From positions 12,117 to 76,116 of the IMG/VR virus record IMGVR_UViG_3300013103_000005: a DNA stretch of 64,000 nt. One strand, given 5' to 3'. Both the position numbers and the translations under genes were made by a program. Under the pieces are notes generated by a model that worked only from the letters and a program-made list of their open reading frames with translations, made no database searches and was not told the origin of the DNA. Origin of the DNA: a virus. Positions within the stretch are counted from its first letter, which is position 1. Each line of letters starts with the position of its first letter. Shown one piece after another: positions 2,300 to 61,303 of the stretch.

Positions 2300-3478
2300 A
2301 TGTATTATATTCTTACAAGACAATTAAAAAATATAATCAAAGACACTTTAAGGGAATGTTTTGATACTCATCCTAAATACAAAGAAATAGATGTTCAAAC
2401 TTCTTATGTATTTAAAGAACGTCCTTCTTATGCAATAGTAGTAAACTCTACAGGAACAAGTTTTACAAAGTTATCAGCCGACCAACAAGTAGGACATTTA
2501 TATAGTTATGCAATTTTAGCTAGAATTTTAGGCAAACCCTGTACCTCGATAGAATGGATAAAAGAAGATAAACAATATTTAGACGAAGGGGGAGAAATAG
2601 CTCCTGCTGGTAAATATTTTATAGAGATAATCTCTGATAAAGAATTTGAATTAAATATACAATATAAAGTTTTTAATGAAGTAATTATAGAAAATGCTCA
2701 AGGCGGGGAATATATATTTCAATTACAACATAAAAATGTAGTGCCTGGTACTTTATCTATGGAAGCCGAAGACCCGTTTACAGTATTCGAGGAAGATAAA
2801 TTTGAAGTAGATTATGAAGAAGGGATTATTAGATGGACAGAACCGGGTGGTATTCCCGAAGGTTGGACGATAAGGGTTACTTATGAATATTTGGACCCTA
2901 ATAGCCCTAAGATTTTCAATTATGAACCTCTTCACTATAACAACGAAGCAATACCGGGAATTATATTAGCCTTTGGAGATAGAATTCATATAGGGGATAA
3001 GCAAGTAGTTATAGTTCAGGAACAAAGGTCAATAAGTCATTATTTGCTAGGTGGGAAATCTAATATTGATATTGATTGCGAAATAGTTGCTCAAGACTTA
3101 TCTTCTTTAGAAGAAATAACAGATTTAGCAACGATGTATTTATGGGGATTAAAAAGAGATGATTTATATAGGGAGTATGGAGTTTTTATAGATGATATTT
3201 CAATAGGTGGAGAATCAGCTGAAGTTAGAGACGATACTGCGGGAGAATTAGAATATAGAAATACAGTTTCATTAAGTTGTATTTGCGATTGGGAAATAGC
3301 CTTTCCTTTACCTAGAGTATTATCGGTAATATGGCCATATACAAGACTTGATGGTCCTGATATTAAGGAAGATGATTTACCAAATTACACCCCGACAAGA
3401 GCAAGTACTTTAGAAGTTACGACTTCTTTTGAGCCTTTTATATTTGGATTTTCTTATAGTGGTGAAAGGATAATATGA
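2300..3478 (+). CDS. Putative tail terminator/neck protein
   Basis: Position before the sheath gene; beta-rich insert (VDYEEGIIRW...VTYEY). Confidence 0.5.
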   Translation: MYYILTRQLKNIIKDTLRECFDTHPKYKEIDVQTSYVFKERPSYAIVVNSTGTSFTKLSADQQVGHLYSYAILARILGKPCTSIEWIKEDKQYLDEGGEIAPAGKYFIEIISDKEFELNIQYKVFNEVIIENAQGGEYIFQLQHKNVVPGTLSMEAEDPFTVFEEDKFEVDYEEGIIRWTEPGGIPEGWTIRVTYEYLDPNSPKIFNYEPLHYNNEAIPGIILAFGDRIHIGDKQVVIVQEQRSISHYLLGGKSNIDIDCEIVAQDLSSLEEITDLATMYLWGLKRDDLYREYGVFIDDISIGGESAEVRDDTAGELEYRNTVSLSCICDWEIAFPLPRVLSVIWPYTRLDGPDIKEDDLPNYTPTRASTLEVTTSFEPFIFGFSYSGERII

Positions 3479-3497
3479 AGTTTAACGCATTAAACTT
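3478..3497. repeat. Dispersed palindrome copy 1 (centre CGCA)
   Basis: AAGTTTAACGCATTAAACTT. Confidence 0.95.
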
Positions 3498-3514
3498 ATC
3501 AGGAGATTTAGATT

Positions 3515-3844
3515 ATGCCTTTATTAGAATTTGAATGTAAGAATGAAAATTGCCCAACAAAAATTTTTGAAAAACTAGTAAATGATAGGAACACTAAATC
3601 CACCTCTTGTCCCAATTGTGGAAGCAGATGTTATAGAGTCGTAGCTTCCCTATTTGGGATAGGAACACAAAATCAATATCAAAACATTGATAGGATTGTA
3701 GGACAAGATGCAGAAAGAAAATGGAAATTATATTACGAAAGGAAAGAACAAAGAGAAAAGTTAATCAAAGAAGGGGTTTTAAAACGACCCAAAAAAGTTT
3801 ATGTTAGTTCTGTAAAAGATAACTCATTTATGAACCCTGGTTAA
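3515..3844 (+). CDS. FmdB-family zinc-ribbon protein
   Basis: MPLLEFECxxxxC...FE...CPNCGS. Confidence 0.75.
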   Translation: MPLLEFECKNENCPTKIFEKLVNDRNTKSTSCPNCGSRCYRVVASLFGIGTQNQYQNIDRIVGQDAERKWKLYYERKEQREKLIKEGVLKRPKKVYVSSVKDNSFMNPG

Positions 3845-3850
3845 TAGGAG

Positions 3851-6673: not shown

Positions 6674-6674
6674 A

Positions 6675-6694
6675 AAGTTTAACCTATTAAACTT
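6675..6694. repeat. Palindrome copy 2 (centre CCTA)
   Basis: AAGTTTAACCTATTAAACTT. Confidence 0.8.
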
Positions 6695-6715
6695 CTTTAA
6701 TCAGGGGAGTTCCAA

Positions 6716-6979: not shown

Positions 6980-7006
6980 TTTGTTTTAGTAACGAAGTCA
7001 AGTTTG

Positions 7007-7026
7007 AACTTTAACGTGTTAAACTT
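7007..7026. repeat. Palindrome copy 3 (centre CGTG, one arm change)
   Basis: AACTTTAACGTGTTAAACTT. Confidence 0.8.
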
Positions 7027-7039
7027 TGAAGAGGTTATA

Positions 7040-8686: not shown

Positions 8687-9554
8687 AGCTTTATTATTTA
8701 GGGGATTTTTAGTAGATGTTAAAAAGCTAGGAAATTTAAGAATAGTTTTTAAATCTCTAAATCAACACGAGCATTCTTTAATTCAAATATTAACATCTAC
8801 TGAATTAGAGAAATTACTTTATACTTTAGCTTATAGTGTTTTCTTATTTGGTAGCATAAATGTTTTAAAAGGAAATAGGGAAGAAAATATAGAAACGTTA
8901 GTGCAAGTATTTTCAAAATTAAATAAAGACTTAATAACTCGCCTTACAGACCTCTCCTTTATGTCCTACCTTGAGTCTTCTGCAATCGAAGATTTATCAG
9001 AATATTCTCAAACAGATTCTTCTAAAATAAAATATTTGGAATACAAAGCTACCAATTTACCTTTAAATCATCCTACTCTTACAGGTATTCCCGGAACAGA
9101 GAATTTAGGTTTAAATTTATATCAATCACAATGGTTAGTCTTAATGGAAGCCAGGCTTAAAAGAGAACAACAAGAAGAAATCTATGAATGGGTAAAATTT
9201 TTAGGTGCTTTTATAAATCCTGAAGCTGTTAAGAAATTAAATCAAATAGATAAACAACAAGAAATATTAGAACAAGATATTGGATTTGAAATTGAAGATG
9301 AATATTTGTTAAAGAAACCAATTAAAACAACTCAAGATTTAATAGACGAAGTGGAGAAGTCTATTAAAGGTGAGATGGACATACACGATAAAATAATAGC
9401 TGAAGCTGAACGTATGTGGATTAAAGAAGAATATGAAAAATACAAAAAGAGGATGGAACAAAGAAAGAAAGAATCTAATCTTGAACCTGGAGTATTTGGA
9501 GAAAGTAGGGTTATTCATATAAATGATGTTAAGAAGAAAAGTTTAACGCGTTAA
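8664..9554 (+). CDS. Putative second tail assembly chaperone
   Basis: Immediately before tape measure; FKSLNQHE parallels the preceding gene. Confidence 0.5.
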   Translation: MKNQKWIEALLFRGFLVDVKKLGNLRIVFKSLNQHEHSLIQILTSTELEKLLYTLAYSVFLFGSINVLKGNREENIETLVQVFSKLNKDLITRLTDLSFMSYLESSAIEDLSEYSQTDSSKIKYLEYKATNLPLNHPTLTGIPGTENLGLNLYQSQWLVLMEARLKREQQEEIYEWVKFLGAFINPEAVKKLNQIDKQQEILEQDIGFEIEDEYLLKKPIKTTQDLIDEVEKSIKGEMDIHDKIIAEAERMWIKEEYEKYKKRMEQRKKESNLEPGVFGESRVIHINDVKKKSLTR

Positions 9555-9560
9555 ACTTTT
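9537..9560. repeat. Palindrome copy 4 (perfect, 24 bp)
   Basis: AAAAGTTTAACGCGTTAAACTTTT. Confidence 0.98.
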
Positions 9561-13482: not shown

Positions 13483-13506
13483 AAAGTTTAACGCGTTAAA
13501 CTTTTC
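13481..13506. repeat. Palindrome copy 5 (perfect, 26 bp)
   Basis: GAAAAGTTTAACGCGTTAAACTTTTC. Confidence 0.98.
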
Positions 13507-13517: not shown

Positions 13518-15905
13518 ATGTTAACAACAAAACAAATAAAGAGATACGATGTTAGAAATATAGGAACAGTTTTACCTAAACCTGAATCTAATGGTAAAGT
13601 AAAAACTAAAAGTATTGTCAAAGAAATAGAAGAACAAAAAGTATATTCTTCAACCCCACCTTTCCCTAAATATAAGAGGGTCAAACGCATTGCTCCAGAC
13701 GCAAGAATAAGAATAAATCAAAGTTTTGAAGTAAGATATTGCCCAAATTGCCCTTGCACCACCACCGCTGATGTAAACTTAATGAGTTTTACTACAAATT
13801 TAAATATCAATTCAGTTCCCGGTACCGCTAGTTTGACCTTTGTAGTAGATAAAAATCAAAGACATAGATATTTTATAGGCGATGAGACTATTTTTAAAGA
13901 GATGGATGAAATTGAGATTTTAGTTAAAAGCAATTTTACAGAAGGGGATAATTTACCTCAATACGATAAATATTATACAGTCTTCAAAGGTATTATTACA
14001 GGAATAGGGGTAGATGAAAGTGCGGGCGTTTTGACCATTTCAATAGATTGTGCTGATATTTTAAGGTTATGGGAATTAACCAGACTTAATTTACACCCCG
14101 GGGTAGATACTTTATTTTATACTACTAATAAACAAGATATTCTAAACAGAATGAATATAGCGTTAAAGCAAGATATATTTCAATTTTTAGTTACTTTAAT
14201 GTCTTACCAATTTATTGATTGGATAGTCCCTGCTAATCTAGTAAATACTGTTTACGGAATTGGAATAAATGAACCTATAGAAACAAAAAGATTATTTCAC
14301 GAATGGCAATCTTATTGGAGAAAAAGGTTAACAAAAACTGCCAATATGTTATTGATTTTAGATTATCAAGGCGGAGCTATAAATATTCAAGCGGGAAAGC
14401 AAATAAATTTATCAGAATTTCAAAAGCAGGGTTTAATTAGTTTTGGAGATTTTGGCATTACAGATGATTTCAGACCCTTAATTCAAGAAGCTTTACAAGG
14501 CGGTATTTCTTTACAATCAGAATTTAAAACTTATTTAGAAATAGCTAATCAATTAAAAGAATATTTACATTGGGAATTTTATATGGATAGTACTGGGGAT
14601 TTAGTTTTTAAGCCTCCGTTTTATAATTTAGATACAAGACCTTGTAAGATTTATAACATCGACGATATTGATATTGTAAGCAAATCGTTAGGGTGGAATG
14701 AGTCTCAAGTAATTACTTCTGTAAATGTCAGAGGTTCAATCCACGAATTGTTAGCGGGTGGAAGCGAACAACCCGAAGCTTTATATATAGATTATAACTT
14801 AACTAAAAGATATGGATTAAGACAGATGATAGATTACGATATTCCTTATATCAGAAATAAAGACCTTGCTTTCGGTTATGCTATAATGGAATTAGACAGA
14901 TTAAATACATTAAGAAGAGAAGGTTCAATTACGATAATAGGAAGGCCTGAATTAAGATTGGGATTTCCTATTTATGTTAAGAGTTTAGATACCTTTTATT
15001 ATATAACAGGTATCAGCCATAATTTTACTTTTGGTGGTACTTATACGACCACAATTTCTTATATAGGAGCTAGGAGCAAATATAAACCTTTAACTAATGT
15101 TCCTGTTAGGATTAATGGTGTTTATAAGAACGTTTATTTAGAATGGGAGAAATATCCTACAGAATTAGAAACTACAAAAGAATTAGAATCTAAAATTTTA
15201 CCCGACGCTCAATCAGAAAGAAATTTAAATGCCTCTGAATCACAAGGGTATTTTATCACTACTAAAACAAAAGAAGCAAAAATTAAACCTAAAAAGACAC
15301 AAGATTTTAGGAACAAATTATTAGAGAATAGTCCAAATATCATCGATGTAGAATTTTATAGGAATAAAAAACAGATAGAAGAAGAAAAATCTAAAGCAAC
15401 AGAAAACACTGCTAAATCAATAAAAATAGGAGAATGGGTGGAGAAGCAATCCAATATTAAAGTTTGGGACTTAATGACTGGAAATTATCTTGAAAATCTT
15501 AAAACGCTTAAACCTGTTTCAGATGAAGAAGGGTATGAAATTGTAGGCAGTTTTCCTTATGGAAATTTAAATTACATAGATGAAGAAGGCAAAATATTAA
15601 GAAAGTCTTCTTTGACAATAACAAATAAAATTCAAAAAGCTTCTTTAAAAGCTAGTAATATGACTCCTACAAAAGGTAATAAACTTTCCAAAACTGAAAC
15701 AGGAGATAAACGACATATAAGAACCAAAGATTTAAGAGAAGCTTTTAGTATAGTAGGGAGGTCCTATAAAGCTAGTGAAATGAGACCTCAAGTAGAAACT
15801 TTAAATACTATTTGTGATTGTGATTGTCATAAAGTGAATTATAGGGAAGGCAGAAATTTGAGGATAGCTGAGGACAAAATAAATTTAAATACAAATCTTG
15901 CCTAA
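13518..15905 (+). CDS. Baseplate hub protein (gp27/gpD-like)
   Basis: WEFYMDSTGDLVFKPP, GRPELRLGFPIY, YYITGISHNF. Confidence 0.7.
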   Translation: MLTTKQIKRYDVRNIGTVLPKPESNGKVKTKSIVKEIEEQKVYSSTPPFPKYKRVKRIAPDARIRINQSFEVRYCPNCPCTTTADVNLMSFTTNLNINSVPGTASLTFVVDKNQRHRYFIGDETIFKEMDEIEILVKSNFTEGDNLPQYDKYYTVFKGIITGIGVDESAGVLTISIDCADILRLWELTRLNLHPGVDTLFYTTNKQDILNRMNIALKQDIFQFLVTLMSYQFIDWIVPANLVNTVYGIGINEPIETKRLFHEWQSYWRKRLTKTANMLLILDYQGGAINIQAGKQINLSEFQKQGLISFGDFGITDDFRPLIQEALQGGISLQSEFKTYLEIANQLKEYLHWEFYMDSTGDLVFKPPFYNLDTRPCKIYNIDDIDIVSKSLGWNESQVITSVNVRGSIHELLAGGSEQPEALYIDYNLTKRYGLRQMIDYDIPYIRNKDLAFGYAIMELDRLNTLRREGSITIIGRPELRLGFPIYVKSLDTFYYITGISHNFTFGGTYTTTISYIGARSKYKPLTNVPVRINGVYKNVYLEWEKYPTELETTKELESKILPDAQSERNLNASESQGYFITTKTKEAKIKPKKTQDFRNKLLENSPNIIDVEFYRNKKQIEEEKSKATENTAKSIKIGEWVEKQSNIKVWDLMTGNYLENLKTLKPVSDEEGYEIVGSFPYGNLNYIDEEGKILRKSSLTITNKIQKASLKASNMTPTKGNKLSKTETGDKRHIRTKDLREAFSIVGRSYKASEMRPQVETLNTICDCDCHKVNYREGRNLRIAEDKINLNTNLA

Positions 15906-15925
15906 AGTTTAACGCATTAAACTTT
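15904..15925. repeat. Palindrome copy 6 (CGCA)
   Basis: AAAGTTTAACGCATTAAACTTT. Confidence 0.95.
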
Positions 15926-16041: not shown

Positions 16042-17424
16042 TTGAGGTGGTTTATGATTAAAAGAGAACTAGGTATAAGGGAAGAACCTTTCTTTGGAAA
16101 AGCTTATAAAACAAATTTCCTAGAATTGGGAAGAATAGCGTTTGTAGATTATGAAAGAAATAAATGTTCTGTACTTACTTTTTCTGGTGCTTTTTATAAC
16201 GAAGTTAGATGGACTTCTGATAAAAGTACTCGTTCGGGGAGTAAAAGAGTTCCTGAACTAGGGGATATTGTTTTATTAGGGAGATTACCTCAAACAGAAC
16301 ATTGGTCTCAACCTATTATAATTGGATTTTTAGAATGGGGATTTGAACCTGCTAAAAAGTTTAACGCGTTAAACTCTCAAGTTGTAGACTTATACCCATT
16401 AAGATTGAAAACAAGAAAATTATACGAAGGTGAATGGTATGCTAGCAGTACTCAAGGTTCAGATATTGTTTTAGACGAAAATATATGGTTCTCCACTTCT
16501 AATGGAAATGAAATTTATATAAGAAAAGAAGACGGGCTTATAGCTCATATTTGTTTATCTCAAATAATACAAACAGAAGCAGGAATTATTAGAAATGGTT
16601 TAGTATTTAGGGATGAATTAACAGATATTACAAAAGCAATGATATTAAAAGATGGGCATAAATGGTATGTAATTACTAAAGATGGTTTTACGAATAAATT
16701 AAGCGAAGGTGGAATTCCTTTTGTAGAATATAGACACGAATTACCAGAATTTGGAGATGGTATTATTGATGTTACTGAATTCAATTCAAATGTAAATATA
16801 GATAGGATTGACCCTTTGATTGAGTATGTTAGAGGAACAGTAATAGGAAATAATCCTTTAGATACTAATCTTTATGGGAAAGTTATTAAATATGTCTTAT
16901 TTAATAACTGGATAGATACTTCTGCGATTAATCAAGAACAATCTTGTAGTTCTTCAGAAGAAACTACAAAAGCATCTTGCTTTAGAATTAAGTTTAAATC
17001 GAATACTAGAAGAGAAATAACAAAACAAGGTAAAGTATTAGAATATATTTCAAAAGACGATAATAATATTTCTGAAGAAAGATATTTAGAAGGTGCTAAA
17101 AAAGAAGTTATAGGTAAAGAGAATTCTAAAAACGAAAGTATAAGACAAGATTTAGCAGGTGGTATTCATTTAACTATTGGAAAGGATATAAATGGGAATG
17201 CTAGGGTAGAAATATTAAATGGCGGGGCAAAGATAACTATAACCCAGGCTAATAATAATGGTTATGGTTTAGAAGCTTCTATCCAAGGAAATGTCAAAGT
17301 AGATATTCAAGGAAATGCAGATCTAAATGTTTCTGGAAATACAAATTTAATTACTGGTGGGAATACTAGTATTCAATCTAGTGGAATAGTAACTATACGG
17401 GGTTCTTTAGTTCAAATAAATTAA
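16042..17424 (+). CDS. Baseplate central spike (gp5/gpV-like; probable start ATG 16054)
   Basis: N-terminal OB-like PELGDIVLLG; C-terminal beta-helix repeats (QGNVKVDIQGNADLNVSGN); followed by PAAR gene. Confidence 0.75.
   Translation: MRWFMIKRELGIREEPFFGKAYKTNFLELGRIAFVDYERNKCSVLTFSGAFYNEVRWTSDKSTRSGSKRVPELGDIVLLGRLPQTEHWSQPIIIGFLEWGFEPAKKFNALNSQVVDLYPLRLKTRKLYEGEWYASSTQGSDIVLDENIWFSTSNGNEIYIRKEDGLIAHICLSQIIQTEAGIIRNGLVFRDELTDITKAMILKDGHKWYVITKDGFTNKLSEGGIPFVEYRHELPEFGDGIIDVTEFNSNVNIDRIDPLIEYVRGTVIGNNPLDTNLYGKVIKYVLFNNWIDTSAINQEQSCSSSEETTKASCFRIKFKSNTRREITKQGKVLEYISKDDNNISEERYLEGAKKEVIGKENSKNESIRQDLAGGIHLTIGKDINGNARVEILNGGAKITITQANNNGYGLEASIQGNVKVDIQGNADLNVSGNTNLITGGNTSIQSSGIVTIRGSLVQIN
16358..16375. 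repeat. Palindrome copy 7 (intragenic, reads FNALN)
   Basis: AGTTTAACGCGTTAAACT. Confidence 0.95.
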
Positions 17425-17698: not shown

Positions 17699-17699
17699 A

Positions 17700-17719
17700 A
17701 AGTTTAACGCGTTAAACTT
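17700..17719. repeat. Palindrome copy 8
   Basis: AAGTTTAACGCGTTAAACTT. Confidence 0.98.
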
Positions 17720-17738
17720 ATTTAAGGAGATTTAGATT

Positions 17739-18301: not shown

Positions 18302-18502
18302 ATGGAAAGAATATTTGAAAATAAAAATTGGAAGATTGAAATTGGGGATAATGATGTTATTTATTTGACTAAAAAGTTTGGAAATAAAGATATTCAAGTT
18401 ATAATTATTTCTCCTAATGATAAAATTATTTCTTTTAAGAATGTCTTCCTAATCGGTGATTTATTTTCTATTAAACAAATAGAAAAAGGTTTAACGCATT
18501 AA
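18302..18502 (+). CDS. Hypothetical protein
   Basis: Short ORF whose stop lies in a palindrome copy. Confidence 0.5.
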   Translation: MERIFENKNWKIEIGDNDVIYLTKKFGNKDIQVIIISPNDKIISFKNVFLIGDLFSIKQIEKGLTH

Positions 18503-18504
18503 AC
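18489..18504. repeat. Palindrome copy 9 (CGCA)
   Basis: GTTTAACGCATTAAAC. Confidence 0.9.
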
Positions 18505-18519
18505 TTTTGAAAGGTTTAA

Positions 18520-19002
18520 TTGATGCTTGATTTTTTAGGTAAATTTAATAAAAAAGATTATGATGAATTAAAACAATTTATAGATTCCGAAGAAGCCAAT
18601 TTAAATGAAATTTTATCCTTTATAGATTATAGAATTCAATCATTGACTACTTTATTAAATAAATTATCTCAAGCAGAACAGACTTTAGGAATTAAAACTA
18701 CTTTAACAAAAGATGAATCTAATTTATCCCCTCAGACTCCTAATAGTACTCAAAATGAAGTAGATAACGATTTTGAAGTAGCATCTTCAATAAGGTCTTT
18801 AAAATATCCATTTGAATCTATCATTAAATTTAAAGGCGAAAATTTAGAATTTAGGATTAAAAAGGTCTTAGATGAGATAACAAGCCTTAAAAATTTTAAG
18901 TATTATATAGAGGAATGGTTAAAAACAAAACAGAAAGATATAGTAGATTCTAAAGTGCAAAGGTTTTTATCTAGTGATAATTACCCAGAAGTAAAAGTTT
19001 AA
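18520..19002 (+). CDS. Hypothetical protein
   Basis: ORF bounded by two palindrome copies. Confidence 0.6.
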   Translation: MMLDFLGKFNKKDYDELKQFIDSEEANLNEILSFIDYRIQSLTTLLNKLSQAEQTLGIKTTLTKDESNLSPQTPNSTQNEVDNDFEVASSIRSLKYPFESIIKFKGENLEFRIKKVLDEITSLKNFKYYIEEWLKTKQKDIVDSKVQRFLSSDNYPEVKV

Positions 19003-19016
19003 CGCGTTAAACTTTT
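18993..19016. repeat. Palindrome copy 10
   Basis: AAAAGTTTAACGCGTTAAACTTTT. Confidence 0.98.
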
Positions 19017-19742: not shown

Positions 19743-19764
19743 AAAGTTTAACGCATTAAACTTT
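19743..19764. repeat. Palindrome copy 11 (CGCA)
   Basis: AAAGTTTAACGCATTAAACTTT. Confidence 0.95.
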
Positions 19765-22832: not shown

Positions 22833-22852
22833 AGTTTAACGCGTTAAACTTT
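22831..22852. repeat. Palindrome copy 12
   Basis: AAAGTTTAACGCGTTAAACTTT. Confidence 0.98.
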
Positions 22853-26944: not shown

Positions 26945-26968
26945 GAAAGTTTAACGCGTTAAACTTTC
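26945..26968. repeat. Palindrome copy 13
   Basis: GAAAGTTTAACGCGTTAAACTTTC. Confidence 0.98.
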
Positions 26969-34130: not shown

Positions 34131-34149
34131 AGTTTAACGCGTTAAACTT
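34130..34149. repeat. Palindrome copy 15
   Basis: AAGTTTAACGCGTTAAACTT. Confidence 0.98.
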
Positions 34150-34172
34150 TTGATTGGAATTGGGATTTAAAA

Positions 34173-38699: not shown

Positions 38700-38713
38700 C
38701 GCATTAAACTTTT
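38690..38713. repeat. Palindrome copy 16 (CGCA)
   Basis: AAAAGTTTAACGCATTAAACTTTT. Confidence 0.95.
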
Positions 38714-46682: not shown

Positions 46683-46683
46683 A

Positions 46684-46701
46684 AGTTTAACGCGTTAAAC
46701 T
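46684..46701. repeat. Palindrome copy 17
   Basis: AGTTTAACGCGTTAAACT. Confidence 0.95.
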
Positions 46702-47361
46702 ATGGAAGAGATTTATAGAACATCTTTAGGAATTTTGTATAAAGGTGATTGTTTAGATTATTTAAAGATTCAACCAGATAAAAGTATGGACGTGGTTGTT
46801 ACTGACCCGCCTTATGGTGTTAGAAATGACGATTGGGATTTGGAATTTGATAAAAATTTGAAAGAATGGTTGGGAAATTGTTTAAGAATTAGTAAAAGAT
46901 GTCTTTGGTTTTGCTCTGGTATAAAGCTACCTATGATACTAAGTCTTTATTCTGAATTACAGCGTCTTTTAATATGGGTTAAACCCAAAGGCAGTCAGTT
47001 TAGCGGAGCAATGAATTCTAATCTATGGTATAGTATAGAACCAATTTTAGTTTATGGGGAGATGCTGCCGAACGATAAGAATAAAAAATACGGATATTCT
47101 CATTTTGTTTATAGAACAGTACCAGAAAGGAAGTATGGGCATCCGACTACAAAACCGTTAGGGTTAATGAAAGACCTTATTTATTTTTATTCTAATGAGA
47201 ATGAAATTGTTTTAGACCCCTTTATGGGTAGTGGAACAACAGCAGTAGCCTGTGAATTATTAAGGAGAAAGTGGGTTGGGATAGAGAAAGAAGAAAAGTA
47301 TTGTAAAATAATAATAGAACGTTTAAAAACAGAAGCGAGACCAAGAAAGACCTTTATTTAG
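46702..47361 (+). CDS. DNA N4-cytosine/N6-adenine methyltransferase, beta class
   Basis: DPPY precedes HPTTKP and DPFMGSGTT. Confidence 0.92.
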   Translation: MEEIYRTSLGILYKGDCLDYLKIQPDKSMDVVVTDPPYGVRNDDWDLEFDKNLKEWLGNCLRISKRCLWFCSGIKLPMILSLYSELQRLLIWVKPKGSQFSGAMNSNLWYSIEPILVYGEMLPNDKNKKYGYSHFVYRTVPERKYGHPTTKPLGLMKDLIYFYSNENEIVLDPFMGSGTTAVACELLRRKWVGIEKEEKYCKIIIERLKTEARPRKTFI

Positions 47362-47368: not shown

Positions 47369-48850
47369 ATGAAAAATAAAATAACAATCGAACATCAATT
47401 TATATTTGCTTTACTCGAAGACCCGGGTAGGTTTAAAAAATTAAGAGGTATTAGTTCAAATTATTTATTAAATCCTGTAGCAAAACTACTTTTTAGAAAG
47501 TTATTAAATTATCATAGGCGGACAAAGAAATTTTTAGATATAGAAGCATTAGGGACTTATATATCTTCTATACCTAAGAAAAAATTAAGAAAGAAATTTT
47601 CAGAGTTTTATTCTGAATTGGCAACCCTTGTAGAAATTTCAGAATCTCAATTTGAATATATTTTAGAACAAATCAAAAAGAATTATAAAAAGAAATTGAT
47701 TAGTAATAAAGTTTATGATGTATTAGTGGCTAATGAGAATGAAGACAATCCAGACAAAGCAGAAAAATTATGGACATTGGGTTTACAGGAATTGAGGAGA
47801 CAATCTCCAGAAGAAGCTCCTTTAATAGACTTAGATGATGAATTATCTACAAGTTTAGAAGAATACGAGAAAATGAAGAACGAAGATAAGAAAGCAGTTC
47901 CTACAGGTATAGATTTAATTGATATGTATACGGGAGGATTATATCCTGGAGAATTGTGGTTGTTAGGCGGTTATACTTCAGAAGGTAAAACTACAGTATT
48001 AACGAATATAGCGAGAAATATAGTAGTTAATGGGTATAATGTTTTGTTTATAACTTTAGAAGAAACTGTAAAACAAATGAGGTGGAGATTTGCTTGTTGC
48101 CATTCTAATTATATTAAAAATGGTTCTGCTATTCCTGGGGTAGTTTATTCTAAAATAGAAACAACCGCTTTAGAACCAGAAGAATTGAAAAAGTATAAAA
48201 AGACAATAAAGGATTGGTATAAAAATAAAAATAGGGGAAGAATATTTTTCTGGCAAGCACCTGCGAACACGATGGTGATTACAGTTGAAGATATTATGAA
48301 TTATTTAGCGATGGATATTAGATTAGATGCCGTGCTTATAGATTATGCTCAATTAGTGAGACCTACAAAAAGAATAGGAAATACAAGATATGAAATGACA
48401 GAGGTTATAGAGGATTTGAAACAACTAGCTTTAACTTTTAACGATGGTAAAGGGATACCTATATTGACCGCTTGGCAAATATCAAGGAAGGGTAGAAATA
48501 ATGCAGAGAAAAGAGGTTATTATATTAAAGAAGATTTTAGCGAAACTTCATTTTCAGAAAGAACTTCTGATGTGATGTTATGGTTTTTAACTACTGATGA
48601 GTTTAAAGAAGCAGGTTTAATTAAATATGGAATAGCTAAAAATAGAGGTGGGCCAACTGAAATTAAAGGAAGATTTTTAAAACAGAATTTCGCTACGAAT
48701 TATATAGGAACAAAAACATTAGACCAGAATGAGGTAGATAAGATATTAAAGAATTATCAAGGCGAGAAGAAAGCTTCAGAAGAATTTGTGGTAGAAGATT
48801 TTGAAGAAGAAGGATTTTTCGACGACATTGAGGAATTTGAAGAAGTTTAA
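47369..48850 (+). CDS. dnaB: DnaB-like replicative helicase
   Basis: PTGIDLID...GGL, GYTSEGKT, ITLEE, IDYAQL, QISR, KNRGG. Confidence 0.9.
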   Translation: MKNKITIEHQFIFALLEDPGRFKKLRGISSNYLLNPVAKLLFRKLLNYHRRTKKFLDIEALGTYISSIPKKKLRKKFSEFYSELATLVEISESQFEYILEQIKKNYKKKLISNKVYDVLVANENEDNPDKAEKLWTLGLQELRRQSPEEAPLIDLDDELSTSLEEYEKMKNEDKKAVPTGIDLIDMYTGGLYPGELWLLGGYTSEGKTTVLTNIARNIVVNGYNVLFITLEETVKQMRWRFACCHSNYIKNGSAIPGVVYSKIETTALEPEELKKYKKTIKDWYKNKNRGRIFFWQAPANTMVITVEDIMNYLAMDIRLDAVLIDYAQLVRPTKRIGNTRYEMTEVIEDLKQLALTFNDGKGIPILTAWQISRKGRNNAEKRGYYIKEDFSETSFSERTSDVMLWFLTTDEFKEAGLIKYGIAKNRGGPTEIKGRFLKQNFATNYIGTKTLDQNEVDKILKNYQGEKKASEEFVVEDFEEEGFFDDIEEFEEV

Positions 48851-48862
48851 CGCATTAAACTT
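48843..48862. repeat. Palindrome copy 18 (CGCA)
   Basis: AAGTTTAACGCATTAAACTT. Confidence 0.95.
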
Positions 48863-48880
48863 TTGAGGACTTTTTGATAA

Positions 48881-49474
48881 ATGAAGAACGAAAAAATTTT
48901 GAAAATAATCAGAGAAGAATTGGATTTATTTAAGGTGTTAGATTTTTATAATATAGAATATAACCCTTCCAAAACAAAACAGATGATAATTTGTCCTTTC
49001 CATTCGGAAATAAAACCCTCTTTATCTATTTCTGAAGATGGAAAATTATGGCATTGTTTTGGGTGTAATGCAGGCGGAGATGTTATAAAGTTTATTGAAG
49101 AAATAGCTAAATGTGATTTTAAAGAAGCTATAGAAATAGCAAAGGAAATATTGGGAATTAAAAAAGGAAAAATCAAAATTAAAAAAGTTGTAAAGACGAA
49201 AGTTAAAGAAAAGATTTTGTTTGAAGATGTTCAAGAGGATTTGAAAAATAAATTACTCGAAGAATTGAAATTGATGTATAAGACTTATAGAATTGTTTGT
49301 GATTTTCCTTTGTATTTGGATAAGATTTATGATTATGTTTTGAGCGTTGTTTTTGAAAAAGAAAGATGGTCTGTATCCTCTGTGAGAACCTTCCTTTCCC
49401 AATCCGAATCTTTATTTAGGCTCTCCTTTGAAAACCCTCCTAAAATTTCAAGATGGTATCCAGAAAAAGTTTAA
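48881..49474 (+). CDS. CHC2 zinc-finger (DnaG primase ZBD-like) protein without TOPRIM domain
   Basis: CPFHSEIKPS...WHCFGCNAGGDVI. Confidence 0.85.
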   Translation: MKNEKILKIIREELDLFKVLDFYNIEYNPSKTKQMIICPFHSEIKPSLSISEDGKLWHCFGCNAGGDVIKFIEEIAKCDFKEAIEIAKEILGIKKGKIKIKKVVKTKVKEKILFEDVQEDLKNKLLEELKLMYKTYRIVCDFPLYLDKIYDYVLSVVFEKERWSVSSVRTFLSQSESLFRLSFENPPKISRWYPEKV

Positions 49475-49488
49475 CGCGTTAAACTTTT
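49465..49488. repeat. Palindrome copy 19
   Basis: AAAAGTTTAACGCGTTAAACTTTT. Confidence 0.98.
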
Positions 49489-50125: not shown

Positions 50126-50166
50126 GGGCGTTATACATTATTAATATATGTATAGGAGGGAGGAAA

Positions 50167-54194: not shown

Positions 54195-54208
54195 GAAAGG
54201 AGAAGAAA

Positions 54209-55049: not shown

Positions 55050-55071
55050 AAAGTTTAACGCGTTAAACTTT
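55050..55071. repeat. Palindrome copy 20
   Basis: AAAGTTTAACGCGTTAAACTTT. Confidence 0.98.
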
Positions 55072-55928: not shown

Positions 55929-56034
55929 AAGCTATAAGAAGGGTTTATCGCACAGAGTTTAGGTTTACATCCAATATGAAATTTAAGAAGACTAAAAGGA
56001 AAGGGAAGGATTTTGGTAAGATATTGGATAGAAA

Positions 56035-56050
56035 GTTTAATGTGTTAAAC
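56035..56050. repeat. Palindrome copy 21 (centre TGTG)
   Basis: GTTTAATGTGTTAAAC. Confidence 0.8.
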
Positions 56051-56075
56051 CTTAATTTAAGGAAAGGAGGTAATT

Positions 56076-56426
56076 ATGATAGTAAAGAAAGAATTTGATT
56101 ATAAAGTAGTTTACATTTCAAATGATTTAGATGAGTTAGTAAACTTAATCGAAGAGAAGATAGGAGAACCTATACATCTCCAATCAAATTATTCTGGTTA
56201 TGCTATTGGAACAGAAGACGAGGAAGGAAATGTGTGGTATGGTGGATGCGACCCGTCTAATTTTATAAACGAAACGTGTCCGCCTGATTGTCCAAAATGG
56301 GATAATGGATTTTGTGATAATCCTTGCGAGAGACAAGGCAAGGGTTGGTATCAATGGGCTTGTTATAAAGAAGATTATGAAACGCCTTTACCTCAAGCTA
56401 TTTCTGCTATTCATAGGGAAGTTTAA
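56076..56426 (+). CDS. Cys-rich hypothetical protein
   Basis: Strong RBS; six Cys in ~40 aa. Confidence 0.65.
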   Translation: MIVKKEFDYKVVYISNDLDELVNLIEEKIGEPIHLQSNYSGYAIGTEDEEGNVWYGGCDPSNFINETCPPDCPKWDNGFCDNPCERQGKGWYQWACYKEDYETPLPQAISAIHREV

Positions 56427-56438
56427 CGCGTTAAACTT
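56419..56438. repeat. Palindrome copy 22
   Basis: AAGTTTAACGCGTTAAACTT. Confidence 0.98.
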
Positions 56439-56647
56439 TGAAAGGAGGTGATAATATGAAGATTTTTGGAAGGAACGAACAATTTGTAAATATTAGGAAA
56501 ATTGCAGAAAATGTTCACGAAGTAGTGTTCTTTACCGATGGCTATAGTTGTTTATTTAATGTTAAAGATTTGGATGAGGAAAAGATAAGGAATATGAATT
56601 CTTTTCCTGAGATAATTTATTATTTATTCTCTTTAAAGAAGGCTTAA
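56438..56647 (+). CDS. Hypothetical protein (probable start 56456)
   Basis: AAGGAGGTG RBS. Confidence 0.55.
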   Translation: MKGGDNMKIFGRNEQFVNIRKIAENVHEVVFFTDGYSCLFNVKDLDEEKIRNMNSFPEIIYYLFSLKKA

Positions 56648-57300: not shown

Positions 57301-57432
57301 ATGAAAAGGAAAAGGTGTAAATATTGTGGAAAATTTTTAAATAGGTATAGTGTTAAATTTAATGTATGTTTGTCTTGTTATTTAAAGACCCTAAATAATA
57401 TCATCGAGTATCAGTTAAAATTGAAAGTTTAA
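57301..57432 (+). CDS. 43-aa zinc-finger peptide (absent from ORF track)
   Basis: AGGAGG RBS; CKYCG...CLSC; stop lies inside a palindrome copy. Confidence 0.55.
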   Translation: MKRKRCKYCGKFLNRYSVKFNVCLSCYLKTLNNIIEYQLKLKV

Positions 57433-57445
57433 CGCGTTAAACTTT
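57424..57445. repeat. Palindrome copy 23
   Basis: AAAGTTTAACGCGTTAAACTTT. Confidence 0.98.
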
Positions 57446-58176: not shown

Positions 58177-59148
58177 ATGTCTCACAATATAGAAATAAGA
58201 AATGGAAGGGCTATGACTTTTTCAGTTGGGGAGGTCCCTTGGCACGGATTGGGTAAGGTGTTAGAGAATCCCTTGACCGCTAAGGAAGCAATAAAAGAAG
58301 CAGGGTTAGATTGGGAGGTGGTTCTTGAACCTTTAATTACCAAAAATACAAGAAGAGAAGTAACCTTTAAGAAAGCAGTGGTGAGAACTGACTACAATGA
58401 GGTTTTGGGAGTTGTAGGAAATATTTATACCCCAATTCAAAATTCTGAGGCTTTCGACTTCTTTGATTCGGTAGTAGGAGAAGGACAAGCTATATATCAT
58501 ACCGCAGGTTCTTTACAGAATGGTAAAAGAATTTGGATACTTGCTAAACTAACAGGTTCTCCGATAACCGTTACTAAATCTGATGTTGTAGAAAAATATT
58601 TGTTACTGACCAATTCCCACGATGGTAGTAGTGCCTTGAGAATGTTCTTTACTCCTGTAAGGGTAGTTTGTAATAATACTCTAAATGTAGCTTTACAAAA
58701 AGGGGTAAGAGAAGGAATATCTATAAGACATTCTACAAATATAAAACAGAAAGTCCAGGAAGCAAGAAGAGTTTTAGGTATATCATTAAAGTATTATGAA
58801 GTATTTCAAGACCAAGTAAAATTATTATCAAAGAAATCTATTACACAATCTATACTTAATGATTATTTAAGAGAGCTATTTCCTACTAACAAAGAAGCTT
58901 TTGACGATACGAGGGTATTAAATATGAGAGCAGAAGTAGAAGAAGTGTTTAATAGTCCTAGAAATACCTTACCAGGAATTAGAGGAACCGCTTGGGCAAT
59001 GTTTAACGCGGTAGCAGAATATGCTGACCATTGGAAGACCTTTAGAGGCGGTAGTGCTGATAATAGATTAAGAAGTATATGGTTTGGTAGTTCTGCTAGA
59101 CTAAAACAAAAGGCGTTTGAGAAGGCTTTGGAGATAGCAAAAGTTTAA
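58177..59148 (+). CDS. DUF932/DUF945-family phage protein
   Basis: PWHGLG, AGLDWEV, YTPIQN, NSHDGS, RVVCNNTL, GTAWAMFNAVAEY. Confidence 0.88.
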   Translation: MSHNIEIRNGRAMTFSVGEVPWHGLGKVLENPLTAKEAIKEAGLDWEVVLEPLITKNTRREVTFKKAVVRTDYNEVLGVVGNIYTPIQNSEAFDFFDSVVGEGQAIYHTAGSLQNGKRIWILAKLTGSPITVTKSDVVEKYLLLTNSHDGSSALRMFFTPVRVVCNNTLNVALQKGVREGISIRHSTNIKQKVQEARRVLGISLKYYEVFQDQVKLLSKKSITQSILNDYLRELFPTNKEAFDDTRVLNMRAEVEEVFNSPRNTLPGIRGTAWAMFNAVAEYADHWKTFRGGSADNRLRSIWFGSSARLKQKAFEKALEIAKV

Positions 59149-59162
59149 CGCGTTAAACTTTT
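59139..59162. repeat. Palindrome copy 24
   Basis: AAAAGTTTAACGCGTTAAACTTTT. Confidence 0.98.
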
Positions 59163-59343: not shown

Positions 59344-59416
59344 AAATTTTATTAAAAATTTAAAAATTTGTATATAATAAAAATAACAGAAATTAAATTA
59401 TTAGGACAGAAAGGAG

Positions 59417-59839
59417 GTGGTTATGGCTAATGATGAGGTTTTTAAAGAAATCGATTTTGCTTGTAGGACGGTTCAGAAAATGTTTAGGAGATACGATGAG
59501 GATACATATCAAGACCTTTGGGTGATAGTGTTAGATAAAAAACTCGTGAATAAATACGACCCAAGTCAAGGTGTTAAACTAAATACCTTTATTACCCATT
59601 GTCTCAAAAACTTTATGATAATTAAGCTTAAAAAGGAAAATAATATTAGCTCTAAAGAGCTTCAAATGTCTTCCCTAGAAAAGGAAGACGAAGATTTTAT
59701 ATTTAATGTTTACCAAACAGATGCGGATTTACCAGAGATTTTAGAAGGTTTGGAATATTATCCCAAAAAGTTCAAAGATTGGGGATTAACCGGTAGTGAT
59801 TTTAAGGGTAGAGGTGTTATACATTATAACCGTTTTTAA
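59417..59839 (+). CDS. Sigma-70 region-2-like protein
   Basis: EDTYQDLW...KYDPSQGVKLNTFITHCLKN resembles region 2 (FDPxxGxKFSTY). Confidence 0.65.
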   Translation: MVMANDEVFKEIDFACRTVQKMFRRYDEDTYQDLWVIVLDKKLVNKYDPSQGVKLNTFITHCLKNFMIIKLKKENNISSKELQMSSLEKEDEDFIFNVYQTDADLPEILEGLEYYPKKFKDWGLTGSDFKGRGVIHYNRF

Positions 59840-59845
59840 GGAGGG

Positions 59846-60820
59846 ATGTTTATGGCTAAAAATAATAAAGCTAAGGAAGAAACAATTAATCTAGAGGAAC
59901 TGGAATTAGAGGAAGGGTTGGACGAATTAAATGTTGAGGAGGAGCCCGAACCTAGACGCAAGAAAAATGGGAAATCTAATGGTAAAGTAAAAAATGGTAA
60001 ATCTAAGAACGGAAATGGAAAGCAGGGAGAAAACAAATCGGGAGTAGCTGAAGGCGACGATATTGTAGAAATTAAGATTGATGATTACTTAGATAAGTCT
60101 TTTAATTTGAGAGAGGATACCCCAGTAGATGATTTGATTAATTCTATAAAGCAAAAAGGTTTGATTCATTTACCCGTGGTGAGTTCTAATGGAAAGTTAT
60201 TAGACGGGCAAAGAAGATTACTTGCATTGAAAAAGTTAGGTTATAAGACAATTAAGGCGAGGGTTTTATATGAGGAGGATGAAGGAGACCAGTTTTTGAT
60301 TTCCCTTATATCTAATGAAGCTAGGAAAGATTTAGACGAATTGGAAAAGGCATCCGCTTATCAAAAAGCACTTGATTCCGGTTATGTTAAAAGTCAAAAG
60401 GAATTAGCAGATTTGTTAGGTTTATCTAAGGGAAGGGTAAGTCAAATATTATCCTTACTAAACCCCGATAAAATAGATGAAGAAGCTTTAGAAGAAATAA
60501 AAGAAGAGGTTTCCGCTTCAAAAGCAAGAGCTTTGAAGAAAGCCCCTAAGGAGAAACAGAAAGAAGTGGCAAAGAAAATTAAATCTGGTGCAAAGGTATC
60601 TGGCGCTAAGTTTGTTCAAAGAATACCTAAAACTGAACTCCCTGAGAATGTTAAGATAGAGGTTAACCCAGATGCCGTGATTATTACTTTTAAAATACCA
60701 GAAGGAACTAAAACTATGGAAGGGTTCGATTTGGTTAAGGTAATTAAGGATAAGCTTAAGGAATTCGATCCTTCAATTAATGATGTAATAAAATTGGCTA
60801 GAAAGCAGGTACTCGTATAA
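59846..60820 (+). CDS. parB: ParB/Spo0J-family protein with HTH
   Basis: SIKQKGLIHLP...DGQRR...SNEARKDL...SQKELADLLGLSKGRVSQIL. Confidence 0.88.
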   Translation: MFMAKNNKAKEETINLEELELEEGLDELNVEEEPEPRRKKNGKSNGKVKNGKSKNGNGKQGENKSGVAEGDDIVEIKIDDYLDKSFNLREDTPVDDLINSIKQKGLIHLPVVSSNGKLLDGQRRLLALKKLGYKTIKARVLYEEDEGDQFLISLISNEARKDLDELEKASAYQKALDSGYVKSQKELADLLGLSKGRVSQILSLLNPDKIDEEALEEIKEEVSASKARALKKAPKEKQKEVAKKIKSGAKVSGAKFVQRIPKTELPENVKIEVNPDAVIITFKIPEGTKTMEGFDLVKVIKDKLKEFDPSINDVIKLARKQVLV

Positions 60821-61293
60821 TGAATAAAGAAAGATTTATAGACCGTTTACAAAGGATTTCTAGGGTTCGCCTCTTTAAAGATATTACAGAGGCGAGCCCC
60901 GAATCTTTTTCTCAAAAAGTTTATGAAGTAGTAACTGCTCATAGTAAAGCAGTTGAGTTATTAAACTTAGCTTTGAAATGGAGACAGGAAACTAAATTAG
61001 AATATGAAGACTTGAAGTCTTTAACTAAACTTCAAAGGACTAAATTGATGATTGAGGATGAGTTTGTAAACGATGGTAATAAAAATGAAAAGAAAGATAG
61101 GTGTGAATATCAAATGAGGGGTTTAATTAGGAATCTAGATGAAAAGAAAAATGAGTTGGAAGAGTACGAGGCTCTCGTTGAAATGGCTAGAAATGTTGTT
61201 AAAGATGCAGAAATAAGAAAGCAAGGCCTTAATCAACAATTAGCATTATATAAAATAAAAACAGAGGTTGAAGTTGAGTTTGGAGAGGTTTAA
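60820..61293 (+). CDS. Coiled-coil hypothetical protein (UvsY-like context)
   Basis: Helical; next to SSB-like and RecA genes. Confidence 0.45.
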   Translation: MNKERFIDRLQRISRVRLFKDITEASPESFSQKVYEVVTAHSKAVELLNLALKWRQETKLEYEDLKSLTKLQRTKLMIEDEFVNDGNKNEKKDRCEYQMRGLIRNLDEKKNELEEYEALVEMARNVVKDAEIRKQGLNQQLALYKIKTEVEVEFGEV

Positions 61294-61303
61294 CGCGTTA
61301 AAC
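61288..61303. repeat. Palindrome copy 25
   Basis: GTTTAACGCGTTAAAC. Confidence 0.95.

Follow-up and report, generated by a model that had tools for sequence, protein, structure and literature searches.

What is the 22-letter DNA palindrome that an uncultured marine tailed phage carries between its genes, roughly every 2.6 kb, and what might read it? The window considered here is a 64-kb stretch of this phage (bases 12117-76116 of a 76,116-bp IMG/VR record), and all genes of the phage lie on one strand. As judged from sequence comparisons, the palindromes are probably dispersed docking sites, akin to parS or to the KorB operator, for an orphan ParB protein encoded by the phage itself.

The palindrome, RAA-GTTTAACGCRTTAAAC-TTT, is present in 25 copies in the window and is the most repeated word of the contig. 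A motif scan for GTTTAACGCGTTAAAC with at most two mismatches returned 24 matches in the window, whereas 0.01 were expected by chance and 0/100 shuffles reached 24; copy 6677, with the centre CCTA and three mismatches to GTTTAACGCGTTAAAC, is the 25th. The count of 25 in the initial annotation was therefore confirmed by the scan against shuffles, and its breakdown was exact: 16 perfect cores, six copies with the centre CGCA, and three others (6677, CCTA; 7009, C..CGTG; 56035, TGTG). The sites that it listed were also right, but its start coordinates, counted from the flanking A's, precede those of the 16-mers by 0-4 nt. A scan of the full 76-kb contig against a null, which had been suggested as a check, yielded 29 copies, the four extra ones upstream of the window, and a reversed-pattern control gave 0 matches on the contig. 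Elsewhere, the 18-mer of the palindrome gave four single hits and no repeat family in 185,579 species genomes, and the palindrome word had only one other hit in IMG/VR. Among 118 other loci of at least 8 kb, no 6+6 palindrome had more than three dispersed copies; two loci reached three copies, and one of these was a canonical parS beside parB, which served as a positive control.

Within the window, 23 of the 25 copies are intergenic, in agreement with the earlier description of copies that fill the space from a stop codon to the following RBS, and sites are present in the head, tail, replication and small-gene regions. Usually 14-25 nt separate the end of the 16-mer from the next start codon, and this interval holds the Shine-Dalgarno sequence; through the TAA within the motif, 13 of the 29 contig copies supply the stop codon of the preceding gene. 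At 3477..3498 (centre CGCA), a stop is located 1 nt before the 16-mer and the next ATG 19 nt after it; copy 6677 (6674..6695) directly follows the intrinsic terminator at 6642-6671, as had been claimed for one copy; the perfect copy at 9538..9559 holds the TAA stop of the ORF 8664-9554; copy 15907 (15904..15925, CGCA) adjoins a stop and is 131 nt from the next start; and the copies at 18486..18507 (CGCA) and 18994..19015 (perfect) hold the upstream stop. Further along, copies precede a baseplate-J-like gene (19743..19764, CGCA), a tail-fibre gene, in a 100-nt gap (26946..26967, perfect), an SNF2 helicase gene (34129..34150, perfect) and a clamp-loader-like AAA gene (38691..38712, CGCA), or are located between the DNA polymerase and DNA methyltransferase genes (46682..46703, perfect) and between a DnaB-like helicase and a primase zinc-ribbon gene (48842..48863, CGCA). 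Copy 49469 (49466..49487, perfect) is at the end of the primase gene, with AT-rich non-coding DNA after it and 206 nt to the next start, and the perfect copy at 59140..59161 is upstream of a block made up of a small ORF, a sigma-like gene and parB. Two perfect copies are inside ORFs, 16359 (16356..16377, in ORF 16042-17424, open frame F N A L N) and 31432 (31429..31450, codons 5-11 of ORF 31418-33568), both in the sole reading frame that the motif leaves open. The motif scan also placed perfect copies at 13483..13504, 17699..17720, 22831..22852, 55050..55071, 56418..56439 and 57424..57445, and variants at 7006..7027 (C at arm position 1, centre CGTG) and 56032..56053 (centre TGTG).

The element is exactly 22 bp long and has a mirror-symmetric conservation and information profile; no conservation was found among the copies of the window phage within 30 nt outside it. 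The inner arm positions are identical (12/12) in 29/29 contig copies, and none of the 29 carries a compensatory or G-U arm variant; thus, it is base identity that is conserved, not only pairing. Altogether, a nearly invariant, symmetric 22 bp between unconserved flanks is in line with the earlier view of a sequence-constrained cis-acting element. The centre is strand-polarised in the window phage, where CGCA occurs nine times (ten with CCTA), TGCG never, and left-half variants once.

The proposed reader is an orphan ParB-type protein of 324 aa encoded at 59846..60820 on the plus strand, composed of a disordered Lys-rich N-terminus, a ParB N-domain with GxRR, a ParB HTH and a subfamily-specific C-terminal domain. 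HTH_ParB (PF17762) matched the protein at 1.6e-10 and its orthologue in the nearest relative, G001, at 4.1e-11; the ParB N-domain (PF02195) matched at 3e-4 and 4.8e-4, respectively, both below the Pfam cut-off. A phmmer comparison with ParBs of the PDB covered residues 70-250 (4UMK, 4.9e-15; 6T1F, 1.2e-10; Noc, 5e-10), and the AF2 model, with a pLDDT of 84-93 over residues 130-210, found its best folds in Noc, Spo0J, ParB (ParB-CDP) and KorB, with Noc chains at the top. G121, R123, R124, N157 and R160 are invariant across the seven-member subfamily, and the GxRR arginine patch and the N..R of box III are kept in the phage ParB; the canonical box III glutamate is missing in the whole subfamily and the window phage has GQRR, not GERR, which makes the CTP-switch behaviour of the protein uncertain. 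ParB is the sole protein common to both phages with a recognisable sequence-specific DNA-binding domain. A search for ParA (PF13614) found no match in either the contig or G001, which is 80% complete, but matched 14/14 control genomes, and the ParA-binding motif (L/F/I)G(K/R)G(L/F/I), as defined in PMC12704722, is absent from the translated ParB N-terminus. Furthermore, no integrase was found in either contig. The lack of ParA and integrase in both phages suggests an orphan ParB in the style of Noc or KorB and not a partition system; a ParABS system was rejected, given no ParA, no ParA-binding motif on ParB, and sites dispersed at about one per 2.6 kb. In both phages, parB directly follows a gene (59417..59839, plus strand, in the window) whose product, of 140 aa in the window phage, weakly resembles sigma-70 region 2 over one stretch and might be a partner of ParB or read the palindrome in its place (Sigma70_r2, 5.9e-4, below the cut-off; PDB sigma, 0.006; homologue in G001, 8e-7), the model of which was unusable (pLDDT 52).

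G001, a 111-kb contig whose polymerase and ParB are 54% and 48% identical to those of the window phage, has a palindrome family of its own, CTTTCA-CGCA-TGAAAG, in 15 copies that are all intergenic, together with a canonical HTH ParB. Two tandem copies are located 32 and 73 nt upstream of the sigma-like/parB block. The asymmetric centre occurs in both orientations relative to the co-directional genes on its two sides and to the uniform GC skew, and this fits an orientation-blind reading of duplex DNA. One G001 copy, site 11483, is at the same gene junction as the perfect window site 61288 (61285..61306), at about 50% protein divergence, and the sequence of this shared-junction site changed in step with the rest of its family. 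Both the dispersed palindrome family and the HTH ParB are absent from three more distant relatives: G003 (complete) has ParB_N only and no HTH ParB, G005 (complete) has no ParB, and in G002 (74% complete) no HTH ParB was found. The pairing of a palindrome family with an HTH ParB was thus seen in two genomes (n = 2), and in other ParB-encoding phage loci sites were clustered or lacking, never dispersed.

The half-sites themselves resemble parS. GTTTAAC in the window phage and CTTTCAC in G001 are each one position off the parS half-site GTTTCAC (6/7), and the parS of Burkholderia cenocepacia chromosome II, gTTTATGCGCATAAAc, matches the palindrome in its length of 16 bp and in the outer GTTTA/TAAAC. 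For the ParB of Caulobacter, base 1 is read by residue 173, an R where the base is G and a Q where it is A, and A6 is accompanied by a small residue at 201 (PMC7383237). In alignments, residue 173 and base 1 are K and G in the window phage and E and C in G001, and residue 201 and base 6 are S and A in both; the co-occurrence of sites and ParB and the K/E-G/C co-variation rest on n = 2, because two genomes carry the pairing. The likeness to parS is not unique, since KorA-type operators look alike: the KorA operator OA, TGTTTAGCTAAACA, is an AT-rich GTTTA...TAAAC palindrome of an unrelated HTH protein. Of the options in the initial annotation, the parS-type protein-loading site is therefore favoured by the ParB gene, the parallel in G001, the parS-like half-sites and the co-variation at residue 173.

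If ParB is the reader, a dimer would bind the duplex 22-bp palindrome with one helix-turn-helix per half-site, G1-T-T-T-A-A6-C-G, in the manner of ParB on parS, Noc on NBS and KorB on OB, and may load there as a nucleotide-gated clamp. The consequence that we prefer is a gating or silencing of transcription at the junctions of gene blocks, because in both phages the sites precede Shine-Dalgarno sequences by 3-12 nt; alternatively, ParB could coat the whole phage genome. Further points against ParB as the reader are that the polarised centre in the window phage is unexplained by a symmetric dimer, and the constant position just upstream of the Shine-Dalgarno also fits a role at the RNA level. 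It is conceivable, if quite improbable, that a nucleotide-gated ParB clamp loaded at every junction palindrome acts with the sigma-like protein to switch the transcription of each gene block on and off; such a clamp-coupled phage transcription programme would follow the logic of T4 gp45/gp55, with ParB replacing the replication clamp.

The KorB/OB system of the IncP-1 plasmid RK2 is similar in that a ParB-family HTH protein, itself a structural match to the modelled phage ParB, controls genes from short palindromes across a whole mobile replicon; however, RK2 has 12 OB sites placed relative to promoters, whereas the phage has 29 sites within 76 kb, located after a stop codon and ahead of the following RBS. 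Moreover, KorB serves partition in RK2, which also encodes the ParA homologue IncC, and KorB has the clamp-locking partners KorA and TrbA, while no ParA and no KorA-like partner were identified in the phage, whose replicon is that of a tailed phage without integrase. KorB is a CTP-gated sliding clamp (PMC11790492). Noc of Bacillus, which supplies the best structural matches of the phage ParB model, is presented in the cited accounts as an orphan ParB paralogue with no ParA partner that nucleates on scattered 16-bp palindromes, NBS (PMC8429893, PMC7383237). Unlike the phage palindrome in site sequence, NBS serve a protein that ties the chromosome to the membrane and blocks division, whereas the N-terminus of the phage ParB is a disordered Lys-rich tail. 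Chromosomal and chromid ParB-parS systems, including that of B. cenocepacia chromosome II, have in common with the phage a 16-bp palindrome core with outer GTTTA/TAAAC, the same N-domain and HTH, and the same behaviour of positions 173 and 201; however, parS sites are few, clustered near parB or the origin, and segregate DNA with ParA and SMC, whereas the phage sites extend over all modules, no ParA was found, and the centre is 2 bp longer than in canonical parS. SopB and IR1-4 of the phage-plasmid N15 likewise join a phage-encoded ParB-family protein to several separate inverted repeats, but there four sites and the SopA ATPase partition a linear plasmid prophage, and the phage has some 30 or more sites and no detected ParA.

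Stoperators of Cluster A mycobacteriophages, which are 13 bp long, oriented with transcription and located in short intergenic gaps, give the closest functional picture for sites between cistrons. As described in the cited source, they have many genome-wide copies where the bound protein stops transcription elongation, and they are asymmetric and bound by the monomeric immunity repressor of a temperate phage (PMC9283540). A stoperator was rejected here, as the site is a 22-bp palindrome with ParB as its candidate reader, G001 copies have both orientations between co-directional genes, and there is no integrase. A literature search found no description of a plasmid-style genome-wide ParB/site system for such phages. 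The earlier statement that this is not a described element is fair for the sequence, but sites of the ParB/KorB/Noc kind are already known.

Another DNA-binding protein of the phage could bind the palindromes, with ParB having other targets or none, and this we consider rather unlikely. The symmetric, sequence-conserved profile would suit any dimeric DNA binder, KorA-type operators look similar, and several proteins of unknown function are conserved between both phages; candidates are those encoded at 37349-38161, 38121-38699, 60820-61293 and 61328-62293 and by the 53-aa ORF 59182-59343. However, only ParB among the shared proteins has a recognisable domain of the required type, the RHH call for the 53-aa ORF was not significant (E = 0.082), and the parS-like half-site and the co-variation of residue 173 with base 1 are specific to ParB.

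About equally doubtful is an RNA hairpin in polycistronic mRNA, serving as a processing site, a 5'/3' stabiliser or a translation-initiation insulator, in the manner of T7 RNase III sites or intercistronic stabiliser hairpins. The one-strand gene order with copies in stop-to-RBS gaps, the polarity of the centre with transcription in the window phage (CGCR, never TGCG), the distance of 15-54 nt that G001 sites keep to start codons however long the intergenic gap, and the inclusion of some G001 copies in a palindrome of 40 nt with a fold energy of -19 to -21 kcal/mol are all consistent with it. Against this, the stem in the window phage has one G-C pair per arm and folds weakly (-5 kcal/mol), bases outside the 22 nt pair no more than expected by chance, and shuffling the flanks leaves the local MFE unchanged. 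The arms lack compensatory or wobble variation, the outer arms in G001 decay without compensation and the element there has both orientations relative to transcription, and copy 6677 comes straight after a strong terminator, which leaves no space for a promoter. These data weaken the mRNA-hairpin option of the initial annotation. An intrinsic terminator was ruled out by the same single G-C pair and low fold energy and by a G001 version without a T-tract in one orientation; the true, GC-rich terminators are at 6642-6671, about 26493 and 62282-62315, and the terminator scan called 62282-62315 and not the palindromes, which thus differ from terminators as had been claimed.

A selfish or recombinogenic repeat, spread by copying without a trans-acting reader (REP/MITE-like, an attC-like cassette boundary or a PeSL-like shuffling site), is very unlikely, and support for the recombination option raised earlier is circumstantial. 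The G001 copies, which have about 60 bp of decaying flanks in common, point in either direction and include tandem pairs with a spacing of 41 or 65 bp; replication genes are common to the two phages, most structural genes are not; and a G001 site at the clamp-loader/polymerase junction is at the exact place where the window phage carries an inserted five-gene module. However, copies in the window phage share nothing beyond the 22 bp, and an almost invariant core between unrelated flanks indicates selection on the core. The word is nearly absent from other genomes, and one site was kept at the same junction while its sequence changed with its family. A REP/RAYT or MITE-like repeat was rejected, as neither contig has a Y1/RAYT transposase (PF01797) and the 18-mer hits in species genomes are single.

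Least probable is a phage-specific promoter that coincides with or overlaps the palindrome and is used by host RNA polymerase with the sigma-like protein, as in T4 gp55 or SPO1 gp34 late promoters: the region-2-like gene upstream of parB in both phages, a right-arm TAAACT that keeps A-11 and T-7 of a -10 element, and the location of copy 6677 between a terminator and a gene are in its favour, but the profile is perfectly symmetric with nothing else conserved within 30 nt, copies 15907 and 49469 are far from the next start, two of the copies fall within ORFs, the sigma assignment does not reach the Pfam cut-off and its model is poor, and the Shine-Dalgarno is 3-5 nt after the 16-mer at several sites, so that a start point 6-8 nt after the right-arm -10 would cut it off. 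A promoter scan gave sigma-70-like matches at chance level and did not locate promoters. No palindrome copy is present in the 5.6 kb from 49.5 to 55.05 kb, a block of 14 small genes, which would also suit a promoter; ahead of this block is non-coding, AT-rich DNA with a single promoter-like match.

When up to two mismatches were allowed, 24 matches to GTTTAACGCGTTAAAC were found in the window against an expectation of 0.01 from dinucleotide-preserving shuffles, and the copy at 6677, which has the centre CCTA, brings the total to 25. The classes reported in the initial annotation (16 perfect copies, 6 with CGCA and 3 others) were reproduced exactly. The window covers bases 12117-76116 of a 76,116-bp IMG/VR record; four more copies lie upstream of it, giving 29 in the whole record, and a reversed-pattern control on the record returned 0 matches. 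No other 12-mer set is repeated as often in the contig. In a profile of the 29 copies, the information content has sharp edges, going up at position -3 and down after +18, and these limits define a unit of exactly 22 bp, RAA-GTTTAACGCRTTAAAC-TTT. The profile of this unit is mirror-symmetric, with no conservation in the 30 nt that flank it on each side. The copies agree at all of the twelve inner arm positions (29/29) and differ only in the four central bases and, once, at arm position 1.

All genes of the window phage are on the + strand, and the copies, spaced on average one per 2.6 kb, occupy the gaps between a stop codon and the next ribosome-binding site. In 13 copies, the TAA within the motif is itself the stop of the upstream ORF, and for most copies the next start codon lies 14-25 nt, and the beginning of the Shine-Dalgarno sequence 3-12 nt, past the end of the 16-mer. 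Two copies fall within ORFs, both in the sole frame that the motif leaves open, while about 17 junctions of at least 25 nt carry no copy, nor does a block of 14 small genes at 49.5-55.05 kb. The GC-rich terminators proposed in the initial annotation are real, as is its placing of one palindrome directly after a terminator, since copy 6677 abuts one. An 11-bp AT-rich hairpin (ACGAAAAATAA ... TTATTTTTCGT) at 15925-15960, directly after copy 15907, has no T-tract on either strand and is therefore not a canonical terminator. A DNA methyltransferase ORF (N6/N4; 46702-47361) starts 1 nt past copy 46685 without a Shine-Dalgarno sequence, and its true start may be 46735. Between copy 49469 and the 14 copy-free small genes lies a stretch of about 650 nt (49488-50160) that is AT-rich at its start, holds few, short and doubtful ORFs, and includes a promoter-like match, TTTAAA-17-TATAAT, at 49513-49541.

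The nearest relative available, the 111-kb G001 (IMGVR_UViG_3300028920_000043), is 54% identical to the window phage in the polymerase and 48% in ParB, the orphan ParB-type protein considered below, and it carries 15 copies of CTTTCA-CGCA-TGAAAG, all of them (15/15) intergenic. Between the two phages both arms have changed at the same mirror positions: the window phage has G at half-site base 1 and A at base 5, and G001 has C at both. The G001 copy at 11483 and window copy 61288 occupy the same gene junction, and the G001 block formed by parB and the sigma-like gene that precedes it has two tandem copies upstream, at distances of 32 and 73 nt. Nearly all G001 genes are on one strand and GC skew is uniform, yet copies with the asymmetric centre CGCA point both ways, and a tie of site orientation to replication direction was rejected on this ground. 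Some G001 copies are embedded in a longer 40-nt palindrome, the outer arms of which decay without compensation. Tandem pairs, 41 or 65 bp apart, are frequent in G001 (examples from its pieces L092-L097 are 13765/13806, 45940/45981, 74448/74513 and 92538/92603); the copies have about 60 bp of flanking sequence in common, gagCTAGTTCAaaAG ... CTaaTGAACTAGctc, which forms the 40-nt palindrome with a 2x2 internal loop, and the orientation of the centre relative to these flanks is reversed in some of them.

The candidate reader of these sites, encoded at 59846-60820 (+), is 324 aa long and combines a ParB N-domain with a ParB HTH (1.6e-10). Residues 70-250 match solved ParB, Spo0J and Noc chains (best 4UMK, 4.9e-15), and the AF2 model is confident over residues 71-250, with Noc, Spo0J, ParB-CDP and KorB as best folds. 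A full HMMER scan of 1.8 billion representatives revealed a small subfamily with the same C-terminal domain, whose third member, P0129, comes from a 10.6-kb Logan contig; against isolated phages, tblastn of ParB gave N-domain matches only, at 43% identity or less. G121, R123, R124, N157 and R160 are invariant throughout the subfamily, the box III glutamate is missing from it, and the window phage has GQRR where G001 has GERR. Among the proteins common to both phages, only ParB has a recognisable sequence-specific DNA-binding domain, and neither contig contains a ParA, tyrosine integrase or Y1 transposase. An RHH protein was rejected as site reader (E = 0.082). In both phages the gene immediately upstream of parB (window 59417-59839, +; L092:13301-13771 in G001) encodes a protein of 140-156 aa in which one stretch weakly resembles sigma-70 region 2; the AF2 model of this protein (pLDDT 52) was too poor for a fold search. 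The AT-rich stretch preceding this gene, at about 59343-59416, looks promoter-like by eye and drew no call in a consensus scan.

A single position separates each of the half-sites, GTTTAAC (window phage) and CTTTCAC (G001), from the parS half-site GTTTCAC. The parS of Burkholderia cenocepacia chromosome II, gTTTATGCGCATAAAc, has the 16-bp length and the outer bases of the window palindrome (PMC7022226). Jalal et al. reported that residue 173 of Caulobacter ParB reads base 1, R going with G and Q with A, and that A6 is paired with a small residue at 201 and C6 with R201 (PMC7383237). By alignment, the equivalent of residue 173 is K with G1 in the window phage and E with C1 in G001 (n = 2 genomes), and the equivalent of residue 201 is S with A6 in both; P0129 has Pro at the 173 position. 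Pairing of Lys with G and of Glu with C is the expected pattern. The residue-173 equivalent (K versus E) is a predicted specificity residue matched to G or C at base 1.

The distribution of such families was also examined. Three more distant relatives, read whole, have no dispersed palindrome family (0/3): G003 (complete), which encodes a ParB_N-only protein, G005 (complete), which has no ParB, and G002 (74% complete). Across 118 other loci of at least 8 kb, no palindrome had more than 3 dispersed copies; this number was reached twice, once by canonical parS beside parB, indicating that the scan finds true sites. Canonical parS, TGTTTC-N4-GAAACA, was seen in 2-3 copies within about 2 kb of parB in metagenomic loci of ParB relatives (L153 at 694, 1526 and 2473; L148; L155). 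No dispersed family was present in thirteen other phage ParB loci, and no repeated palindrome in a distant ParB subgroup, where the result is uninformative, the subgroup being represented only by GC-rich contigs of 6.5-7 kb. Searches for related loci with the polymerase alone, the ParB pair or P0129, and with the 3-member ParB alignment on metagenomes, yielded no new clade members; the exact 18-mer had 1 other match in IMG/VR and 4 single matches in GTDB, all at chance level; and one DNA run gave only short fragments from related strains, none of the listed pieces covering a site.

We propose that ParB dimers would dock on the 22-bp sites and, by analogy with KorB, Noc, VirB and BisD, might close as nucleotide-gated clamps and spread, although closure and spreading are uncertain because the ParB motifs are altered. 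A site every 2.6 kb would place the whole genome within spreading reach. Because the sites lie between cistrons, just upstream of ribosome-binding sites, the favoured outcome of binding would be stoperator-like gating or silencing of read-through transcription (PMC9283540), with genome coating as the alternative. A ParABS partition system would bring a ParA, a ParA-binding motif and sites in clusters; the phage has none of the three, so its system is not of that type. In its proposed working it is closest to KorB-OB or Noc-NBS, as a new form of that kind carried by a phage that yielded no integrase. Phages often encode ParB-fold proteins, of which almost all are uncharacterised (PMC12704722), and the dispersed-site ParB relatives known so far (KorB, Noc, VirB and BisD) belong to plasmids, chromosomes and ICEs; no phage ParB/dispersed-site system of this kind was found in the literature searched, and a general search on phage intergenic palindromes returned nothing specific. 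If correct, the proposal would add phages, here a tailed phage with a partner-less HTH ParB and some 30 or more intergenic cognate sites, to the replicons with clamp-based control or coating of the whole genome. Should the sites gate read-through between cistrons, the stoperator strategy would be reached by a second, unrelated route.

The palindromes could instead act as an RNA hairpin upstream of the ribosome-binding site, which would suit their constant placement just 5' of it in both phages and the strand-polarised centre in the window phage (CGCA 9 times, TGCG 0 times). However, the 24-mer fold reaches only -5 kcal/mol, local MFE equals that of shuffled flanks, conservation extends to base identity beyond pairing alone, and G001 copies occur in both orientations, making this explanation doubtful; pairing past the 22-mer is at chance, and on this ground an extended RNA rod around the sites was likewise rejected. 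It is still less probable that the copies are a selfish or recombinogenic repeat without a trans-acting reader, given that window-phage copies have no common flanks, no transposase or integrase was found, and the motif word forms no family in GTDB genomes or in IMG/VR. A minor recombination role is consistent with the mosaic relation of the two phages and with a G001 site at the junction where the window phage carries an inserted module. Least credible is that the palindrome is, or overlaps, a phage-specific promoter read with the sigma-like protein: the place of its gene directly before parB is conserved between the two phages, but the sigma-like assignment is weak, the site profile is symmetric with no second conserved element nearby, several copies are far from any start or within ORFs, and at several sites a start point after a right-arm -10 would cut off the Shine-Dalgarno sequence. 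Sigma-70 promoter matches were at chance level in a promoter scan. An N4-type hairpin promoter was set aside, as no RNA polymerase turned up in what was scanned, and an integron attC, as a direct search found no integrase.

Proteins identified in the phage include a tail sheath, tape measure, baseplate J, tail fibres, an SNF2 helicase, a UDG-fused family A polymerase, a DnaB-like helicase, primase, RecA and resolvase. The polymerase (44307-46682) consists of an N-terminal uracil-DNA-glycosylase-like domain (UDG, 6e-33), a 3'-5' exonuclease and PolA (9e-108), an architecture common to many metagenomic relatives; it is about 33% identical to polymerases of SPO1-like Bacillus phages, and megablast gave no match to isolated phages, none of which is close. 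CheckV puts the 76-kb record at 18% completeness, implying a genome of about 400 kb; its gene content looks like that of a 110-150-kb SPO1-like myovirus (compare G001, 111 kb, 80%), and a distant best hit may have distorted the estimate.

A five-gene block (39577-44310) separates the clamp loader from the polymerase. It encodes a second, ParB_N-only protein without HTH (39577-40245, +; PF02195, 2.5e-14), two radical SAM proteins (40232-41518, +, and the B12-binding 41935-43215, +) with a small unknown protein between them, and an unknown 363-aa protein. No counterpart of the block was detectable in G001, which has a palindrome copy at the corresponding junction. The block may be a DNA-modification module, for which phage ParB activators of thymine dioxygenases offer a comparison (PMC13229309). 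The small-gene region near parB encodes a RadC-like JAB protein (54182-54661) and a DUF932 protein (58177-59148; 4.5e-67). Members of both families often occur in the leading regions of plasmids and ICEs.
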